Shown in pieces: positions 3,161-59,236 of a DNA stretch of 64,000 bases. The notes below the pieces were generated by a model, which saw nothing but the letters and a program-made list of their open reading frames with translations, ran no database searches and was not told the origin of the DNA. The position numbers and the translations under genes were made by a program. This DNA is from Patescibacteria group bacterium (GTDB lineage: Bacteria > Patescibacteriota > Patescibacteriia > JAHIZJ01): assembly GCA_028714495.1 (NCBI GenBank), contig JAQTMH010000004.1, positions 64,232-128,231 on the forward strand, written 5' to 3'. The first letter of the stretch is position 1. Each line of letters starts with the position of its first letter.

Positions 3161-3529
3161 TTATAGTTGTTTAACCATGTATGTATCTCGAAGTTTGTAG
3201 CCGATTTTACGATAGTACTCACGCACCCCGATGCCGGAGATAACGGCGATTTTTTAAAGCCTTTTTTGAGAGCGATTTTTTCAGCTTCACGCATTAATCT
3301 TTTGCCCAGGCCAAGATGCTGGACCGCTGATTCCTTCTTTTTTCCCCTTCAGTTCAATCAGCTGGCCGTATATGTGGAGCTCTCTAATCAGCGCGCCGTC
3401 CTTTAAAACCGGAAACAGCTGATTGATTTCCGGCGATGGATAAATTGGGAGCCGGACAAAGGCATAAAGCCTCTGGCGGTTTTTATTCTCGTAGAATATG
3501 AAATATTCAGTGCCAGCCGAAGCCACCAT
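3161..3529 (-). pseudogene. displaced 3' fragment of elp3-like gene (frameshifted)
   Basis: The two short ORFs 3112..3294 and 3287..3529 are homologous to the C-terminal GNAT region of ORF 4579..6180 (LYAFVRLP.., LIRELH.YGQ, KKGFKK). One A is missing in the A-run near 3251, giving a frameshift. The last 87 bp are near-identical to 4590..4677. Confidence 0.75.
3169..3255. repeat. 87-bp direct repeat (left copy) flanking inserted element
   Basis: Near-identical to 4590..4677 (2 mismatches, 1 indel). Flanking sequence is only about 70 percent similar. Confidence 0.85.
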
Positions 3530-3556
3530 TTTTTTAATAATAAAAGGAGGCGTTAT

Positions 3557-4297
3557 TCACGCCTCGCGGGTCAGCTGTGCGATCTCGTCTTTGTAGAGAT
3601 CAAGCCACCCTTCATCAAAGAACCACTTGGGAACGAGTGATCCCTTTAGCCGCCGCTCGCGCTGGAGCGTCCGGTACGTCCAGACGCAGTGACCCTCGCT
3701 GCCGCGCACCTTAGGCGCGGTGACCGCCTGACGCACGACATTGTGCGGAAGTGTGTAGGGCGGATTGAATCCGCCGTTGATTTCGATGTAGGTGCGGCGC
3801 AGGTTGAGCGCTGCCGTGAGGAATCGCACGAGCAGGCTGAACCCGCGGTTGGTGCAGCATGCGTCGGGATGAACGATGATCAGGAACGACTGTCCCCGTC
3901 CGCGCATCGGGTGATTGATGCAATTCCAGGTGTCGCTGCCGTCGATTGCCCGGTCCGTTGTTCGGCACTCAGGCGGAGAGGACAGATACGTGATGGGGTC
4001 GCCGGGTTCGTCTCGCAGGAGCACCCGGTCAGTGGCACCGTTCACCATGAAGGCCCCGTGCCAGCCCAGGAGCTCGGGATGATACCGCGGAATCACGTAA
4101 AGACTGTCGTTCGGATCGTCCGAGAACGTGCAGCAGCCGCGCCAGAACGTGAAGGGATGCTTCTTCGGCGCGTAGAATGTGACGCGCCAGCGTTCCAGGC
4201 AGTCAGTCTCGACTTCCCAGCGCAGGAGAATGCCATAGCGTCTCCGGATGCGCGTGACCAGGCCCTTGAGGGCGCTTTCCAGACTAGGATAGAACAT
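3557..4297 (-). CDS. hypothetical protein with FNPPY motif (possible N6-adenine/N4-cytosine DNA methyltransferase catalytic motif IV), GC-rich foreign gene
   Basis: 246-aa ORF with RBS GGAAGGGGG upstream of ATG 4297. It contains NGGFNPPY; no clear AdoMet motif I was recognised. The antisense 297-aa ORF was rejected. Confidence 0.5.
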   Translation of the reverse strand: MFYPSLESALKGLVTRIRRRYGILLRWEVETDCLERWRVTFYAPKKHPFTFWRGCCTFSDDPNDSLYVIPRYHPELLGWHGAFMVNGATDRVLLRDEPGDPITYLSSPPECRTTDRAIDGSDTWNCINHPMRGRGQSFLIIVHPDACCTNRGFSLLVRFLTAALNLRRTYIEINGGFNPPYTLPHNVVRQAVTAPKVRGSEGHCVWTYRTLQRERRLKGSLVPKWFFDEGWLDLYKDEIAQLTREA

Positions 4298-4506
4298 CAG
4301 TGTACCCCCTTCCGTGGATTTGGTTGGCTGTTGACAGTATTTGGCCGACAGCCCTTTTTATCATATTCAGTTTGTCTTGTCAAGGGCGTAAAAAGGCCGT
4401 CGGCTTGCATTTCTATGGATCGGTGTCGGTTCACTCCTATGAATGGTAACAATGACGATGCTAACCCCACGGCAACCGTGATGAGCATCCTGTACATTTT
4501 TAGCAC
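4297..4506 (-). CDS. hypothetical small protein (69 aa, N-terminal hydrophobic segment)
   Basis: ORF only, inside the inserted element. Confidence 0.25.
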   Translation of the reverse strand: MLKMYRMLITVAVGLASSLLPFIGVNRHRSIEMQADGLFTPLTRQTEYDKKGCRPNTVNSQPNPRKGVH

Positions 4507-4578
4507 ATTGGGCGGTTATACGGCTGAGCCGCGACTCGGTGCTATTGAAACTATATTGCGTTGTCGGATGAATGATAA

Positions 4579-6180
4579 TTAGGACAGAGGTTTGACCATA
4601 TATGTATCTCGAAGTTTGTAGCCGATTTTACGATAGTACTCACGCACCCCGATGCCGGAGATAACGGCGATTTTTTTATAGCCTTTTTGGCGGGCGAGAC
4701 GTTCAGCCGTTAGCATCAGACGCTTGCCAAAACCCAAGTGCTGCACGGCTTTTTTATCTGTTTGACCGACAGGGATCATTTGGCCGTAAGTATGGAGCTC
4801 ACGGATAAGCGCTGTGTTTTTTAATACAGGTAACAACTGTTGCAGGCGAGATTGGCCAATCTCGCCTATGGGTGAATTGTTTGGCAGACGCAGGCGCAGG
4901 AAAGCATAAAGCTTCTTTCGAGTTTTATCCTCGAAAGAAATAAAGCACTCATCTCCAGCCGCGGCCCGGTATTTTTCGGCAAAAATCTTGGCTTGACTGG
5001 GTTTAACCTGGCTGGCACGAGCTTCGCGGCAACGAATGCATTGGCAGATTACGCCGCGCTCGCTTAGAACCTGGCGCAGGTTTGTCAGACGGCTTCCAGC
5101 CACGATATCTGGGCCGGGAATATCGCGCACCAGCCGTTCGATTCTGACCCAGCGGGGAACCAGCGCTTTCAGCTTTGGGATTAATGACATCAGTTGGCGC
5201 TCGGAATAGGGTTTATATTTCCCGCGTTTCCACAGATGATAAAGGGGAGAGTTTTTAAGCACCACGGTCGGATAGAGTTTTAGGAAATCGGGTTTGAAAC
5301 GCGGATCAGTAAAGACTTCCCGGAAGGTTTTGATATCTTTTGCCGGAGTAGCTCCAGGCAAGCCGGGCATGAGATGATAATTGATTTTTAAACCGGCCTC
5401 ACGCAAAAGTTTCGTGGCTTGGACTATGGTTTTAACATCGTGGCCGCGCTTAACCAGCTTGAGGATTCGATCGTCAGTGGTTTGAACGCCGATCTGAACG
5501 CGGGTAACGCCCAATTCACGCAGGCGCCTGATCTCTTCCGGAGTGATGAAGTCGGGCCGGGTCTCGATAGTCAGTCCGATAATCCGGTTTTTGGCGTGTT
5601 CATTCAGTTTCTGAGCAGCTGATAGGCCAGAGGCAGTTTTTCCATTAGCCGCGTCAAAGCATCGCTTAATAAACTGGGTCTGATAGGCTGTTGGGTAAGC
5701 CGACCAGGTGCCGCCGAGGACGATGAGTTCGATTTTATCAGTGGCGTGGCCATTGGCCTGAAGAGTGGCTATTCGGGTTTTTACTTGTCGATGAGGGTCA
5801 AATTTAGCGCGAAAAGCCCGTTGCGCCGCCGGTTCGGAAACCAGATAGCTTTTTGGCATCTGATCTTCGGCCGGACAGTAAACGCATTTGCCCGGGCAGG
5901 GGTAGGGCTTAGTTAGCGCGGTTATTACGGCCACGCCCGAAAGGGTGCGGATTTTGCGGCGGCGCAGGGTATTTAATAGAGGAGCGCTAACCGGCAAACG
6001 CCCGGCCTTTATCAATTGCCGATATGCCCGTAAAATAGTATTATTAGAGATGATCGGGAGATTAAACTCTTTGGCGGCGCGACGCTTAAATCCAGCCAAG
6101 TCTTCCGAGCTAGCGACGCTACTCCCCAATAATTTTTTGACTATGGGATACCAATCCATATGAAAAGCGATTTTGCTCAA
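4579..6180 (-). CDS. elp3: Elp3-like radical SAM / GNAT acetyltransferase (tRNA U34 modification family)
   Basis: Radical SAM region has KIRTLSGVAVITALTKPYPCPGKCVYCP and GHATDKIELIVLGGTWSAY. The C-terminal domain is GNAT-like. 533 aa. Confidence 0.8.
   Translation of the reverse strand: MSKIAFHMDWYPIVKKLLGSSVASSEDLAGFKRRAAKEFNLPIISNNTILRAYRQLIKAGRLPVSAPLLNTLRRRKIRTLSGVAVITALTKPYPCPGKCVYCPAEDQMPKSYLVSEPAAQRAFRAKFDPHRQVKTRIATLQANGHATDKIELIVLGGTWSAYPTAYQTQFIKRCFDAANGKTASGLSAAQKLNEHAKNRIIGLTIETRPDFITPEEIRRLRELGVTRVQIGVQTTDDRILKLVKRGHDVKTIVQATKLLREAGLKINYHLMPGLPGATPAKDIKTFREVFTDPRFKPDFLKLYPTVVLKNSPLYHLWKRGKYKPYSERQLMSLIPKLKALVPRWVRIERLVRDIPGPDIVAGSRLTNLRQVLSERGVICQCIRCREARASQVKPSQAKIFAEKYRAAAGDECFISFEDKTRKKLYAFLRLRLPNNSPIGEIGQSRLQQLLPVLKNTALIRELHTYGQMIPVGQTDKKAVQHLGFGKRLMLTAERLARQKGYKKIAVISGIGVREYYRKIGYKLRDTYMVKPLS
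4590..4677. repeat. 87-bp direct repeat (right copy) flanking inserted element
   Basis: See 3169..3255. Confidence 0.85.
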
Positions 6181-9508: not shown

Positions 9509-10942
9509 ATGAAAATCAATCCGTTCGTTTTTCGTAACTATGATATCCGAGGAATTGTCGATGTTGATCTTGACGTTGAAAAAGTTGAAGCAATCGGCAA
9601 GGCGTATGGGACGTTTTTGCGGCGCCGGAAAATACGCCAAGCGGTCATTGGACGCGATTGCCGGTTAAGCGGTCCTGATTACCAAACCGCGATGATAAAA
9701 GGCATGACCGCGATGGGTATTGATATGGTTGACTTGGGAATGGTGATGACTCAAATGGTTTATTATGGCCACTACCGTTTTCAGACAAATGGCGGGGTCA
9801 TGATCACCGCCTCTCATAATCCTTGGAATTTCAATGGCTTTAAACTGGGCGTGGGTTATTCGCAAACAACGGAGCCGGAACACGTTCAGGAGATAAAAGA
9901 TATTGTTGATTCGGACAATTATTTTAAATCCGATGAAACAGGTAAGGTTGAAAAAGCCGATATTACCGAGGATTATTATCACGACGTCTTGAAGCGCGTC
10001 AGGCTGAAGAAAAAATACAAGGTCGTGGTTGATTCACATTTTGGTACGACCGGAATGTATATCCCCGAGATTCTTAAACGGGCTGGTTGCGAGGTTATCG
10101 CAAAAAATATAAAGGTAGATGGGCATTTTCCGGCTGGCACGCCAGATCCGACTGACGAAGCACTTATGAAAAAGGTCAGAGACATGGTTTTGGAAGAAAA
10201 GGCCGATGTGGGCTTTGCTTTCGACGGTGACGGTGATCGGATCGGCGTGGTTGATGAACAGGGACATATCCTTTGGAACGACGTGTTAGTGGCGATATTT
10301 GCCCAGGAAATTCTCAGCCGTTTTCCTAAGTCGAAGATTGTGTATAACACTCTCTGCTCGCAAGTTGTACCCTTGGTAGTGGAACAGGAAGGTGGCATAC
10401 CAGTAATCTGGCGGACCGGCCATTCGTTTATCAAGTCAAAAATAGCTAAAGAAAAGGCGGCCTTTGGCGGTGAATTATCGGGTCATTTCTTCTTTGCCGA
10501 CAATGCTTATGGTCACGATGACGGCTCATACGCCGCTTTACGTCTTCTGGAATATCTCTCTGACCGAAATCTGACGTTAAGCCAGGTTTATGAATCTTTC
10601 CCGCAATATATCTCATCACCAGAGATAAAGATCGGTTGCCCGGACGACAAGAAAGCCCAGGTGATAAAAGAGATATCGGTAAAATTTCAAAAGGATTTTC
10701 CCGAGGGAAAGGTGACTGATGAAAGAGTAATTCCAGGCGATGACGGTTGTCGGATTGATTTTAAGGACGGCATGATGATTTTCCGCTATTCACAAAACGG
10801 CCCATATATTACAGTAAAATTCGAAGCTAAGGATAAAGAGACTTACGAGAAACGCCGCCTTTATGTCCGCGATACACTCAAATCGTACCCGGACATGATT
10901 TGGGAAGACCAGCTCTGCGTTAATTTAGCCGTACTTGAATAA
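9509..10942 (+). CDS. phosphoglucomutase/phosphomannomutase paralog
   Basis: ITASHNPWNFNGFKL and FDGDGDRIG motifs. Confidence 0.85.
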   Translation: MKINPFVFRNYDIRGIVDVDLDVEKVEAIGKAYGTFLRRRKIRQAVIGRDCRLSGPDYQTAMIKGMTAMGIDMVDLGMVMTQMVYYGHYRFQTNGGVMITASHNPWNFNGFKLGVGYSQTTEPEHVQEIKDIVDSDNYFKSDETGKVEKADITEDYYHDVLKRVRLKKKYKVVVDSHFGTTGMYIPEILKRAGCEVIAKNIKVDGHFPAGTPDPTDEALMKKVRDMVLEEKADVGFAFDGDGDRIGVVDEQGHILWNDVLVAIFAQEILSRFPKSKIVYNTLCSQVVPLVVEQEGGIPVIWRTGHSFIKSKIAKEKAAFGGELSGHFFFADNAYGHDDGSYAALRLLEYLSDRNLTLSQVYESFPQYISSPEIKIGCPDDKKAQVIKEISVKFQKDFPEGKVTDERVIPGDDGCRIDFKDGMMIFRYSQNGPYITVKFEAKDKETYEKRRLYVRDTLKSYPDMIWEDQLCVNLAVLE

Positions 10943-42407: not shown

Positions 42408-42436
42408 CGAGCGCAGGCACGGAGACCTGCGCTCGG
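42408..42436. repeat. REP-like GC-rich hairpin CGAGCGCAGG-CACGGAGA-CCTGCGCTCGG
   Basis: 10-bp stem. Copies at 44641..44667 and, inverted-core, 45286..45311. Related units at 44890..45060. Confidence 0.75.
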
Positions 42437-44601: not shown

Positions 44602-44701
44602 TAATGACGTGTCGAGTGCGTTGAGGGCTGATATCGACATCGCGCAGGCACGGAGACCTGCGCTCGGCGGCTATCCTAAATAACATTAACAAATAAAAAT
44701 C

Positions 44702-44884
44702 ATGTCAAACTGCTTCCAAAAAGGCGGATCAGCTGGCGCGGTCTATGGCCTGGGCTTGATCGGCGCAGCTGTTTATTTTATCGGCCACGCGGGGGGTTTT
44801 TGGATCGGCGTGCTCGGATTTCTCAAAGCGCTGGTTTGGCCGGCCATGCTGGTTTATCGCGCGCTCGAGGTTTTGTATCAATAG
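44702..44884 (+). CDS. small membrane protein (60 aa)
   Basis: Gly-rich TM hairpin. Confidence 0.35.
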   Translation: MSNCFQKGGSAGAVYGLGLIGAAVYFIGHAGGFWIGVLGFLKALVWPAMLVYRALEVLYQ

Positions 44885-44889
44885 GGCTC

Positions 44890-45060
44890 GGGTGCGCCCA
44901 ACGAGAGCGCGGGCACAGACCCGCCCGCATTGCTTCACAACGCGAAGTGGGCGGGGACCCGCGCTCGGAGGATAATAATTATCCTATCGTGGGGGCGCGG
45001 AATTGAAAAAACACATCGCGCACCCGCGGAGGGGCGCGCTCGGAGGATAAAAATTATTCC
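44890..45060. repeat. cluster of REP-like GC-rich palindromes (BIME-like)
   Basis: Contains CCCGCCC..GGGCGGG, GGATAATAATTATCC and two CGCGCTCGGAGGATAA units. Confidence 0.7.
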
Positions 45061-45074
45061 ACCGTTCAAATCGA

Positions 45075-45353
45075 ATGACCCAACGAAGAATTTATCAAGA
45101 CGAATTCCCGTATTTCGTAACATTTCGGACGGCTGGGGACAATCCGTTTTTTGAAAACGCGAAATACGCCGCATTATTGTCGGATATTATATTCGAGGCG
45201 GGAAAATTGAAAGGATTTGACGTTTTATCGTACCAAATCATGCCGGATCACTTACATTTATTTACTCAAAAAACCCAAACCGACCACCGAGCGCAGGCCT
45301 CCGTGCCTGCGCGTACATCGAAAACGGATCGCGCACCCCGTTTTTTACTATAG
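45075..45353 (+). pseudogene. truncated REP-associated tyrosine transposase (RAYT, IS200/IS605 TnpA-like), disrupted by a REP hairpin
   Basis: HUH motif QIMPDHLHLF at residues 56-65. The ORF ends at 92 aa before the catalytic Tyr region. The REP-like hairpin 45286..45311 sits at the break. Confidence 0.6.
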
Positions 45354-48880: not shown

Positions 48881-48991
48881 ACCCCGCTCCAATCTCAGCC
48901 AAGTCCGTGGTTTATTGTTGGCCAAAGGCGAAGCCGCCTAGCGGCTCGCGCTTTTTCTTATTGATGACATCTATAAGATTGGGGCGGGGTT
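48881..48991. repeat. 112-nt palindromic hairpin element, copy 2
   Basis: About 90 percent identical to 1944..2055. Immediately followed at 48992..49025 by the sequence that lies 755 bp downstream of copy 1 (2811..2843). Confidence 0.8.
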
Positions 48992-57858: not shown

Positions 57859-58154
57859 TCCGCGATAGCTCAATGGTAGAGCAACCGGCTGTGTACGAAA
57901 ACGCAGCTTCCGATGGAAACGTCGGGATGAACTCTCTGGGATAACGGTGAAGGCTTCATTCAAATTCTATTTGAATATGCTGATACCGTGGGAACCCCCG
58001 CACCTTCCGAAGGTGAGGGGGGCGCCGTAGAGACTAGATACCAGAGTGCCTAAACCCAGTCATTTGGGTAAGGCAAAGATATAGTCCATGCCGTATGGAA
58101 ACATATGGATTACGTGTAACCGGTAGGCTGTCGGTTCGAATCCGACTCGCGGAG
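57859..58154 (+). tRNA. tRNA-Asn (anticodon GUU) interrupted by a group I intron in the anticodon loop
   Basis: Exon 1 is 57859..57892 and exon 2 is 58117..58154. The spliced product has acceptor TCCGCGA/TCGCGGA, D arm GCTC-AATGGTA-GAGC, anticodon stem ACCGG/CCGGT, loop CUGUUAA, T arm GTCGG-TTCGAAT-CCGAC and discriminator G. Confidence 0.8.
57893..58116 (+). ncRNA. group I intron (224 nt, small IC3-like tRNA intron)
   Basis: P1 pairs exon GCUGU (57888-92) with IGS GCAGC (57903-07), giving a U.G wobble at the splice site. R element AGAGACTAGA (58029-38) and S element AAGATATAGTCC (58076-87) form P7. The terminal G (omega-G) is at 58116. Confidence 0.8.
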
Positions 58155-58263
58155 CTCGCCGCTTTTACTATTTAGGAAGATATTTAGGAAGAAGTGATGG
58201 ATCAATAATAAATTATCCCTTTGGATTGATTTTTTGCTTGATTAGGGGTAAACTTTAAAAAAG

Positions 58264-58417
58264 ATAGGACTTACGCGCTTGCCGCTTTCGACCCGGCGAA
58301 GCCGGGTCAGTAAGCGGCTTTACCACCCAATCCGCCAAAGAGGCGGATTGGGAACCCGATTTGGCCAATTTCTTCCCCCGGATTTAATCCGGGGTTGTCT
58401 CAAACGTGTAAGTCCTA
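58264..58417 (+). promoter_or_regulatory. structured 5' leader / MITE-like element upstream of SDR gene (13-bp closing helix TAGGACTTACGCG / CGTGTAAGTCCTA around three hairpins)
   Basis: Long-range complementarity is read directly. The 3' 55 nt are conserved with window positions 58..112, upstream of the HAD gene. Confidence 0.5.
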
Positions 58418-58441
58418 AAAGAATTATAAATTAAGAGTATT

Positions 58442-59236
58442 ATGTCAAAAAAATCAATCTCCGAACTGTTTAATTTAAGCGGCCAGACTGCCGTGGTCAC
58501 TGGCGGGGCCATGGGGATCGGTTTCGGCATCGTTAAGCGTTTGCATGAGGCCGGAGCCAACGTTGTCATCGCCGATTTGGCCGAAAAGGAAGGCCAGCAG
58601 AAAATCGAGCAACTAGGTGAGCGGGCGCTTTTTATAAAAACTGATGTCAGTAGTGAGGCTGACGTGAAAAAATTAATCAGCGCCACGGTTGAGAAATTCG
58701 GCGGATTGGACATTTTCGTTAATAACGCTGGGATTTACCCTTCCGCATCGGCGCTGACTATGGACGTTCAGCTATGGGACAAAGTACAGGCAGTGAACAT
58801 GCGCAGCGTGTTTCTGTGTTGCCGGGAAGCGGCTGGGGTAATGGTCAAAAAAGGAAAGGGCAATATTATCAATATTGCTTCGATTGACGCCTTGCATCCG
58901 AGCCAGATCGGCTTGGCCGCTTATGACGCTTCAAAACACGGTGTGTGGGGGTTTACTAAGAATTTTGCCCTGGAATTAGGTAAGCAGGGTGTGCGAATTA
59001 ACGCCGTTGCTCCAGGCGGCATAGCCACCGAGGGCGTGGCCAAGATGAGTGAGCCGGCTGCCGCTGCCAGTATTGACATGAAAGAAATGACTAAGCAGTT
59101 CTTGGCAAAGATACCGCTTGGCCGCATGGGCGAGCCGGATGAAATTGGTACGGTTGTCTTATTTCTTGCCAGTGATGCGTCTTCATACATGACTGGCTCA
59201 ATGATTGTTGTTGATGGAGGAGCGTTATTGGCGTAG
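58442..59236 (+). CDS. short-chain dehydrogenase/reductase (SDR) family oxidoreductase
   Basis: TGGAMGIGFG cofactor motif, NNAG, and catalytic YDASKHG (YxxxK). Confidence 0.85.
   Translation: MSKKSISELFNLSGQTAVVTGGAMGIGFGIVKRLHEAGANVVIADLAEKEGQQKIEQLGERALFIKTDVSSEADVKKLISATVEKFGGLDIFVNNAGIYPSASALTMDVQLWDKVQAVNMRSVFLCCREAAGVMVKKGKGNIINIASIDALHPSQIGLAAYDASKHGVWGFTKNFALELGKQGVRINAVAPGGIATEGVAKMSEPAAAASIDMKEMTKQFLAKIPLGRMGEPDEIGTVVLFLASDASSYMTGSMIVVDGGALLA

Follow-up and report, generated by a model that had tools for sequence, protein, structure and literature searches.

A structured block ahead of two unrelated genes in a Patescibacteria genome: a probable miniature transposable element with IS701-type ends

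Introduction

Why should one structured block of DNA lie ahead of two unrelated metabolic genes? The question is raised by a stretch of 64,000 nucleotides from a Patescibacteria group bacterium (assembly GCA_028714495.1, contig JAQTMH010000004.1, positions 64,232 to 128,231; hereafter the window, in whose numbering positions are given). A preliminary description of this stretch noticed a conserved block before an SDR gene and again before a HAD/GDPD gene pair, and proposed either a riboswitch-like leader or one of the miniature inverted-repeat transposable elements (MITEs). The block is real, its coordinates having been off by about one base, and it is very probably a MITE with the ends of the ISAba11/ISMesi2-like subgroup of IS701 insertion sequences (ISs), present as a copy of 153 bp before the SDR gene (copy A) and a copy of 203 bp before the HAD/GDPD pair (copy B). 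The identification follows from the flanks, which carry 5-bp duplications, and the occurrence of the same block ahead of two unrelated genes would then be explained by two separate insertions.

Two copies of one element

Copy A is a 153-nt non-coding element (58265-58417, forward strand) in the spacer that separates the SDR gene from an intron-containing tRNA gene, and it ends 24 nt before the SDR ATG at 58442. Its 5' arm TAGGACTTACGCG (58265-58277) pairs with CGTGTAAGTCCTA (58405-58417) through 12 Watson-Crick pairs and one G-U pair, and three near-perfect hairpins lie inside this helix (58281-58318, 58326-58352 and 58376-58394), which bears out the 13-bp closing pairing and three-hairpin domain described beforehand. 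The sole open reading frame (ORF) in this region (58279-58434, 51 aa) runs across the hairpins of copy A and is judged spurious. The features of the two copies are as follows.

58265-58417, +: MITE copy A, complete, 153 bp (sequence, fold with z = -10.2, terminal inverted repeats, duplication)
58260-58264, no strand: left target-site duplication of copy A, AAAGA, identical to 58418-58422
58265-58283, +: left terminal inverted repeat of copy A, TAGGACTTACGCGCTTGCC, the same over 19 nt as one end of a 1053-bp IS (L087)
58281-58318, +: hairpin 1 of copy A, GCCGC...GCGGC around GACCCGGC-GAA-GCCGGGUC, found in 'type I' relatives, in which the inner stem covaries
58322-58363, +: nested 42-nt hairpin module of copy A, ACCACCCAA...UUGGGAACCCGAUUUG, splitting the GCGGCUUUGGCCAA junction of the family
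58364-58375, +: family-conserved linker GCCAATTTCTTC (alignment of relatives)
58376-58394, +: hairpin 3 of copy A, CCCCGGAU-UUA-AUCCGGGG (sequence, fold, alignment)
58399-58417, +: right terminal inverted repeat of copy A, CTCAAACGTGTAAGTCCTA (motif search)
58418-58422, no strand: right target-site duplication of copy A, AAAGA, identical to 58260-58264
1-105, +: MITE copy B, its 3' 105 nt, the rest being cut by the window edge; right terminal repeat at 87-105
106-110, no strand: right flank of copy B, TAAAT, which agrees with the left flank TAAAC (L001 9780-9784) at 4 of 5 positions
tRNA-SDR spacer: GTAAACTTTAAAAAAGAATTATAAATTAAGAG

The copy at the start of the window had been taken for a less complete one, but it is only cut by the window edge. 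A Logan contig (L001), which is 100% identical over the window overlap and carries the same HAD gene, contains it in full as a 203-nt element with its own 5' arm (9785-9987). Upstream of copy B is a 2-thiouracil-desulfurase-like gene, 2 nt past whose stop codon the copy starts, and 13 nt separate its end from the HAD ATG at 119. The copy lies within a 218-bp gap inside a co-directional gene string that continues with the HAD/GDPD pair. Its flanks, TAAAC and TAAAT, appear to be a slightly decayed duplication.

The block common to both copies runs roughly from 58364 to 58417 and from 51 to 105, and TAGGACTTACGCGYTTG is the terminal inverted repeat of both. The plus strand of the window has the 19-mer CTCAAACGYGTAAGTCCTA in two places, compared with 0.01 expected matches at up to 3 mismatches, and the third match of that search is the inverted 5' end of copy A itself. 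A hairpin that differs in sequence between copies while remaining a hairpin had also been claimed, and this stands in part: the stem CCCCGGAU/AUCCGGGG of hairpin 3 is identical in the two copies and only its loop differs (UUA in copy A, UCGG in copy B), whereas the middle hairpins are different inserted modules. Hairpin 3 stands in place of a long CGTTAAAACC...GGTTTTGCCTCGAAC arm present in most relatives; the long central arm of the family has been lost from copy A, and its CGTAG...CTACG hairpin is kept in copy B. Both of the two short-read contigs with the SDR gene end inside copy A, as assemblies break at repeats.

A family of inserted copies

The MITE family is widespread in Patescibacteria. 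When one genome per GTDB species was scanned with the 3' 19-mer, 78 loci were found, and in most of these matches an inverted partner (TAGGAC...) lies 85-230 nt upstream, so that the elements are complete; the family has a median size of 154 bp and a range of about 22-430 bp. Most loci have titles from the Patescibacteria group, or candidate phyla radiation (CPR), such as Doudnabacteria, Moranbacteria/Moraniibacteriota, Liptonbacteria, 'Saccharibacteria' and 'Patescibacteria group', and a minority have other titles (Bdellovibrionales, Gammaproteobacteria) or generic ones, all labels being as deposited. Many copies can occur in one metagenome-assembled genome (MAG), for example at least 22 at the 18 loci of JBAZQK01 and 11 in PLYC01. 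The terminal-repeat pattern gave 0 matches in viral contigs, and a lone match of the 19-mer there (L082) was set aside as chance, being in coding-like sequence and without a partner end. Full-text search found no paper on MITEs in Patescibacteria/CPR or on IS701 in that group, within a literature coverage that is incomplete.

The flanks of these elements carry the clearest signs of insertion. Among 79 complete non-redundant copies from the genome loci, 44 have an exact 5-bp duplication and 12 more match at 4 of 5 positions, while pairing each left flank with the right flank of another element gave 1.35% exact matches. An independent replicate of 68 metagenome copies, picked with a different pattern, gave 38 exact duplications (control 1.5%), so that over both sets 82 of 147 complete relatives (56%) have the duplication against about 1.4% in controls. 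Lengths of 2-4 and 6-9 bp on the same flanks gave no match; only 5 bp works. The duplicated target sites are AT-rich (79-copy set), and the same ends are found in 149 complete copies. Furthermore, a pair of tandem paralogues on one contig (L096) provides an empty and a filled site, one paralogue reading AAAATAATATGTCATTC and its twin AAAATAATAT, a 134-bp MITE and AATATGTCATTC.

The gene context of copies, judged with a simple ORF call, shows that they occupy tight intergenic gaps, with a median distance of 13 nt back to the preceding stop and many copies at 0-7 nt. Copies before gene starts have the same orientation as the gene in 28 cases and the opposite in 15 (p = 0.07), and those after stop codons divide 25 to 20. 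Whether copies always stand 15-25 nt upstream of start codons in the same orientation had been raised as a check; they lie anywhere from 0 to 130 nt from the start, and both orientations occur. The neighbouring genes are unrelated, and include those for CysRS, AspRS, MreB, CTP synthase, Nramp, SAH hydrolase, a histidine kinase and glycosyltransferases. Mixed orientation and position together with target-site duplications had been named in advance as what would speak against a leader, and that is the pattern found.

A transposase-encoding partner

The MITE also has a candidate source. A metagenome scan with the end sequence TAGGACTTACGCGYTTG gave at least 120 matches, and among the matches listed were convergent end pairs about 1.05-1.13 kb apart. 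One of these elements, of 1053 bp (L087), is bounded by TAGGACTTACGCGCTTGCC and TAGGACTTACGCGTTTGCC and contains a single 328-aa ORF, which scores 347.2 bits against NCBIfam NF049921 (transpos_IS701_2, 'IS701 family transposase'; cut-off 250, E = 9.7e-104) and is also above the Pfam cut-offs for DDE_5 and DDE_Tnp_1. Transposase homologues at 52-65% identity occur with the same ends in L136, L131, L167, L187 and L098, the ORFs of L187 and L098 being frameshifted. The full-length IS701-type elements, of 1053-1131 bp and with the same 17-19-bp ends as the MITE, are as follows.

L087, 199-1251
L136, 1190-2261
L187, 346-1415
L098, 97-1227

At its 5' end the MITE shares 19 identical nt with the IS end that adjoins the transposase stop codon, and the interiors are unrelated. 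Together with the duplications, the mixed orientation and the unrelated neighbours, a transposase-encoding element with the same ends supports the MITE alternative of the preliminary description. As the window holds no transposase gene, we only infer that the partner would mobilise the MITE in trans. In the proposed mechanism, an IS701-family DDE transposase would recognise the 17-19-bp ends (TAGGACTTACGCGYTTGCC) and insert the element by a 5-bp staggered cut at AT-rich intergenic sites, which would produce the 5-bp duplication; one copy would have landed in the putative 5' untranslated region (UTR) of the SDR gene, and the other in the gap between the desulfurase-like gene and the HAD/GDPD pair.

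Autonomous copies were also sought in the genome loci as convergent ends 0.4-6 kb apart with up to 4 mismatches, and none was convincing. An all-against-all clustering of 416 ORFs gave recurrent families, which proved to consist of housekeeping genes and not of transposases.

The nearest relatives from annotated plasmids are 34-42% identical to the partner transposase, and include those of ISAba11 (Acinetobacter), ISMesi2 (Allomeiothermus) and an IS of Methanosarcina barkeri. These ISs have almost the same ends, and their features are as follows.

ISAba11: right end ...CTGCGTAAGTCCTA
ISMesi2: ends TAGGAGTTACGCAGTTG / TAGGACTTACGCAGTTG, 1092 bp, 7-bp flanking repeat
M. barkeri IS: end TAGGACTTACGCAGTT, 1139 bp, 5-bp flanking repeat ATGGT

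The M. barkeri IS (L205 296-1434, plasmid NZ_CP009527.1) encodes the closest annotated transposase relative, at 42.5% identity, and because this archaeal plasmid IS has nearly the same ends and a 5-bp duplication, the IS subgroup spans Bacteria and Archaea. The IS701 family has been described with ends of the form ---YACT-Y--YR in three end clusters, 4-bp repeats and lengths of 1400-1550 bp, with the remark that this consensus does not cover the whole family (PMC2266710). The MITE end TAGGACTTACGCG agrees with it in ACT at positions 5-7 and YR at 12-13 and disagrees at Y4 and Y9. The 5-bp duplications of the MITEs and the 1053-1139 bp of the partner IS fit a distinct ISAba11/ISMesi2-like subgroup and not classical IS701.

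A fold that covaries between lineages and decays within a genome

The RNA fold of the copy A plus strand has a predicted energy of -86.1 kcal/mol, compared with -47.1 +/- 3.8 in 200 dinucleotide shuffles (z = -10.2), and the minus strand folds about equally well (z = -8.7). Between lineages the stems covary, as had been predicted. In an alignment of 14 copies, each of about 123 nt and drawn from different MAGs, standard pairs fill 95.4% of the pair cells, nearly every pair of three internal helices varies, and double-sided changes occur in 15 of 37 pairs, against 8.3 +/- 1.6 in shuffles, none of 500 of which reach 15; the count falls to 3-5 when partners are slid by 1-3 columns. Similarly, hairpin 1 of the copy A subtype covaries, as CCCGGC/GCCGGG in some copies and CCGGGC/GCCCGG or GTCGGGC/GCCCGAC in others. 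This covariation is nevertheless compatible with a MITE, as is known for bcr1 of Bacillus. No strand preference goes with it: G-U pairs are rare, accounting for 4.3% of pairs when the plus strand is read and 5.7% when the minus strand is read (143 unique copies), and the pair table of the 14-copy alignment, tallied by hand, holds 11 G-U and 13 A-C cells. Covariation of this kind does not discriminate RNA from DNA.

Within one genome the picture is different. Among 18 copies in one MAG, 63 stem pairs have changed; 42 of these are disrupted on one side only, and the 12 'compensated' pairs are put down mostly to a hairpin module that is swapped in L052 and L069. Together with the missing G-U strand bias, this one-sided decay argues against a functional RNA read from one strand. 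As the stems covary between lineages and decay within a genome, selection on the fold is placed on the propagating element: the fold would be kept in the propagating lineage of master copies and decay after insertion, rather than acting as a host regulatory RNA at each locus. The fold may be selected for competence in transposition or for the host's tolerance of a co-transcribed element; it may draw the two ends of so short an element together, or render it harmless or useful once it is co-transcribed.

The interior of the elements is modular. Invariant columns are mainly the paired terminal repeats, interior modules are exchanged between lineages, and many relatives differ by short G+C-rich hairpin insertions; the ends stay constant and the interior can be exchanged. 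The ends of the 42-nt module of copy A recur in L028 with a different hairpin body, and L004 lacks the module. When the ACCACCC...GGGAACCCG module was sought outside MITEs, it was seen only in copy A, L028 and perhaps L042, and the nested hairpin module was rejected as a mobile unit in its own right.

Other relatives give further instances. Precise 20-40-nt G+C-rich hairpin insertions, such as CCCGCCTCGGACGGCGGG and CCTGCCTGCCGGTAGGCTGG, distinguish the near-identical pairs L010/L044/L023, L032/L057, L025/L058, L031/L076 and L004/L028, and hint at a process that adds small palindromes inside MITEs. Elements with the same ends and different cargo come from other Patescibacteria lineages (L011, L022, L026, L050, L055, L061 and L072, also L013/L081), the alternative cargo being palindromes of the GTCATTSCSRG...CYSGSAATGAC type in elements of up to about 430 nt.

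It is a tentative and rather doubtful proposal that the multi-hairpin fold itself may be the selected trait of a Patescibacteria-wide MITE superfamily, while sequence and modules turn over. Folding as a cruciform or foldback may join the ends of an element shorter than the persistence length for an IS701-type transposase. Alternatively, the elements may be portable RNA structure modules, such as stabilisers, RNase targets or insulators, that are tolerated or exploited in short CPR spacers. If that reading were true, the copies before the SDR and HAD genes would be genuine 5' UTR structures, albeit accidental ones.

Weighing the identification

Several observations weigh against the identification as a MITE of an IS701 subgroup. 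A homologue of the transposase is absent from the 64-kb window and from all 78 genome loci (tblastn), so the IS and the MITE were not found in the same genome. The 5-bp duplication was found in none of the four full-length IS copies (L087, L136, L187 and L098), which may reflect chimeric joining across the repeat in short metagenome contigs, or a real difference in behaviour, and the repeat on either side of ISMesi2 in L204 has 7 bp (TGGAGGA) instead of 5 bp. Both the 5-bp duplications of the MITEs and the 1053-1139 bp of the partner IS differ from the 4 bp and 1400-1550 bp of classical IS701 (PMC2266710). The predicted empty site of copy A, AACTTTAAAAAAGAATTATAAATTAAG, gave 0 matches in metagenome contigs. 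Moreover, start-adjacent copies lean towards the gene's orientation (28 to 15, p = 0.07), and within one genome paired sites change half as often as unpaired ones (0.035 vs 0.064 per site). These last two observations could reflect some host-level constraint on copies.

It is also conceivable, though unlikely, that the copy before the SDR gene has been co-opted as a 5' UTR structure that alters mRNA stability, processing or translation, which would add to the MITE identity and not compete with it. Copy A is probably transcribed as the 5' UTR of the SDR gene, given its location between a weak promoter-like pair and the start codon, and the transcript would then carry a 153-nt domain of -86 kcal/mol; effects of co-transcribed MITEs on neighbouring genes are documented in other families (PMC3184786; PMC6382973). 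However, the promoter call is weak, the sigma-70-like pair TTGATT-17-TAAACT (58226-58254) having been found by eye with 8 of 12 matches, below the scan threshold. Furthermore, the ribosome-binding region lies outside the element, and stem decay within a genome speaks against selection at the locus. An outward hybrid promoter starting from a -35-like TTGGCT/TTGTCT in the right end was also considered and rejected, as its spacing and -10 are poor at copy A.

A riboswitch-like or other cis-regulatory RNA leader that senses a signal and controls the SDR and HAD/GDPD genes is very improbable. Both window copies do precede a start codon by 13-24 nt and point the same way as the gene, the very stable fold has covarying stems, and copies before gene starts lean mildly towards the gene's orientation (28 to 15). 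The wider family does not behave in this way: start distances vary, copies follow stop codons as often as they precede starts (45 of 88 adjacencies are after stops), 35 of 88 are antisense to their neighbour, and the neighbouring genes have no common function. No variant has an Rfam match, the window, the element and 15 loci with other variants having been searched at gathering and permissive thresholds; the best chance match, to P9, reached 24 bits where the gathering score is 43, and other weak ones were to hairpin-rich small RNA models. The exact 5-bp duplications and the empty and filled pair indicate insertion, and copy B, starting 2 nt past the upstream stop, would be an intra-operon insertion and not a promoter-proximal leader. 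Finally, the interior is replaced wholesale between lineages, the invariant part is mainly the transposase-binding ends and not an unpaired core, and G-U pairs show no strand bias.

A multi-copy family of stand-alone small RNA genes would share the stable, covarying fold and the many copies per genome, but is hardly tenable, as the element has no conserved promoter or terminator and no strand bias, copies abut coding regions at 0-7 nt, and the duplications and transposase partner already account for copy number. The idea of a hairpin of REP/RAYT, IS200/IS605 (PATE) or integron attC type, which a tyrosine (HUH) transposase or an integrase would mobilise as single-stranded DNA, can practically be discarded: although G+C-rich hairpins with GNA triloops such as GCGAAGC form stable DNA mini-hairpins and are present here, both strands fold equally well, and a truncated IS200-like ORF and REP-like palindromes occur elsewhere in the window (44641-45353), those palindromes differ in sequence from the MITE, such systems are not known to have target-site duplications or terminal inverted repeats, and they are ruled out by the strict 5-bp duplication and by inverted ends of 17-19 bp that match a DDE (IS701-family) element exactly.

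Comparison with known elements

For the MITE identified here, the closest analogue is the bcr1 repeat, a group A bcr element found in the Bacillus cereus group (Okstad, 2004; Klevan, 2007; Kristoffersen, 2011; reviewed in PMC3184786). It is non-coding and about 155 bp long, with direct repeats of 5 bp and a cruciform-like fold whose closing helix holds independent stem-loops; it shows compensatory changes, and some copies have lost stability. The two are alike in size, in being non-coding, in 5-bp repeats at variable positions, in the closing helix with stem-loops, and in compensatory changes and decayed copies. The Patescibacteria MITE is unlike bcr1 in its unrelated sequence and its host phylum, and in that a transposase partner with identical ends was found. 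With ISAba11/ISMesi2-type IS701 elements it shares the terminal sequence TAGGACTTACGC, the partner transposase being above the NCBIfam IS701 cut-off, but the window MITE has no transposase gene and only about 19 bp per end in common with them.

Correia/NEMIS elements (Neisseria), MITEAba12 (Acinetobacter) and RUP and BOX (Streptococcus) are likewise short, non-coding, multi-copy elements with terminal inverted repeats, at mostly intergenic AT-rich sites and in either orientation. Correia elements duplicate TA, unlike the 5 bp duplicated here. Duplications are kept in only a fraction of copies, 40% for MITEAba12 (PMC6382973) and 56% for the Patescibacteria MITE. The fold of copy A, at -86 kcal/mol for 153 nt, is far stronger than that of MITEAba12, which has about -24 to -27 kcal/mol for 113 bp (PMC6382973), and in contrast to classical MITEs the interior is modular, multi-hairpin and covarying instead of a simple long palindrome. 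The resemblance to Rfam riboswitches and leaders lies in the multi-helix junction, the covarying stems and the 5' UTR position at the two window loci; the difference lies in a context that is not conserved, both orientations, a constant part that is mainly transposon ends, and the lack of an Rfam match.

Other features of the window

The tRNA gene upstream of copy A (57859-58154) has its anticodon loop split by a group I intron (Rfam RF00028, 52.4 bits, gathering score 50), and ARAGORN misses it on the intact sequence. By brute-force ARAGORN the splice junction is ambiguous, giving Thr(UGU) if 57890 and 58115 are joined and Asn(GUU) if 57892 and 58117 are joined.

A second, unrelated MITE-like repeat of about 110 nt occurs at 1946-2055 and 48881-48991, with 91% identity and the inverted ends CCCCGCCCCAATCT...AGATTGGGGCGGGG. 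REP-like G+C-rich palindromes (CGCGCAGGCACGGAGACCTGCGCTCGG) occur in both orientations at 42411-42436, 44641-44670, 45018-45043 and 45284-45313, and surround a truncated IS200-like (Y1/HUH) ORF (45075-45353) with the motif MPDHLHLF, whose match to Pfam Y1_Tnp is weak and below the cut-off (E = 6e-4). Together they may be a decayed system of the REP/RAYT type.

Direct repeats of 100 nt with 93% identity (3169-3268 and 4590-4689) flank a 1.3-kb insert and adjoin an ELP3-like gene (4579-6180, minus strand). The insert contains a duplicated C-terminal piece of the ELP3-like radical-SAM/GNAT gene (3287-3529) and a 246-aa ORF (3557-4297) with no Pfam match, and the region 3169-4689 is either a partial gene duplication or an unknown insertion.

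Concluding remarks

The block ahead of the SDR and HAD/GDPD genes very probably belongs to an ordinary kind of mobile element and is not a riboswitch, so one false riboswitch candidate is removed from annotation, and the general understanding of how such elements work is unchanged. The TAGGACTTACGCGYTTG ends together with the 5-bp duplication provide a masking signature for a repeat family that breaks short-read assemblies of Patescibacteria, and the source of the MITE is tied to an ISAba11/ISMesi2-like subgroup of IS701. The contrast between covariation at the level of lineages and decay within a genome makes this family a tractable case in which the fold of a MITE may be selected for transposition or for tolerance by the host. 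Streamlined CPR genomes of about 1 Mb can hold at least 20 near-identical copies of such an active-looking MITE.

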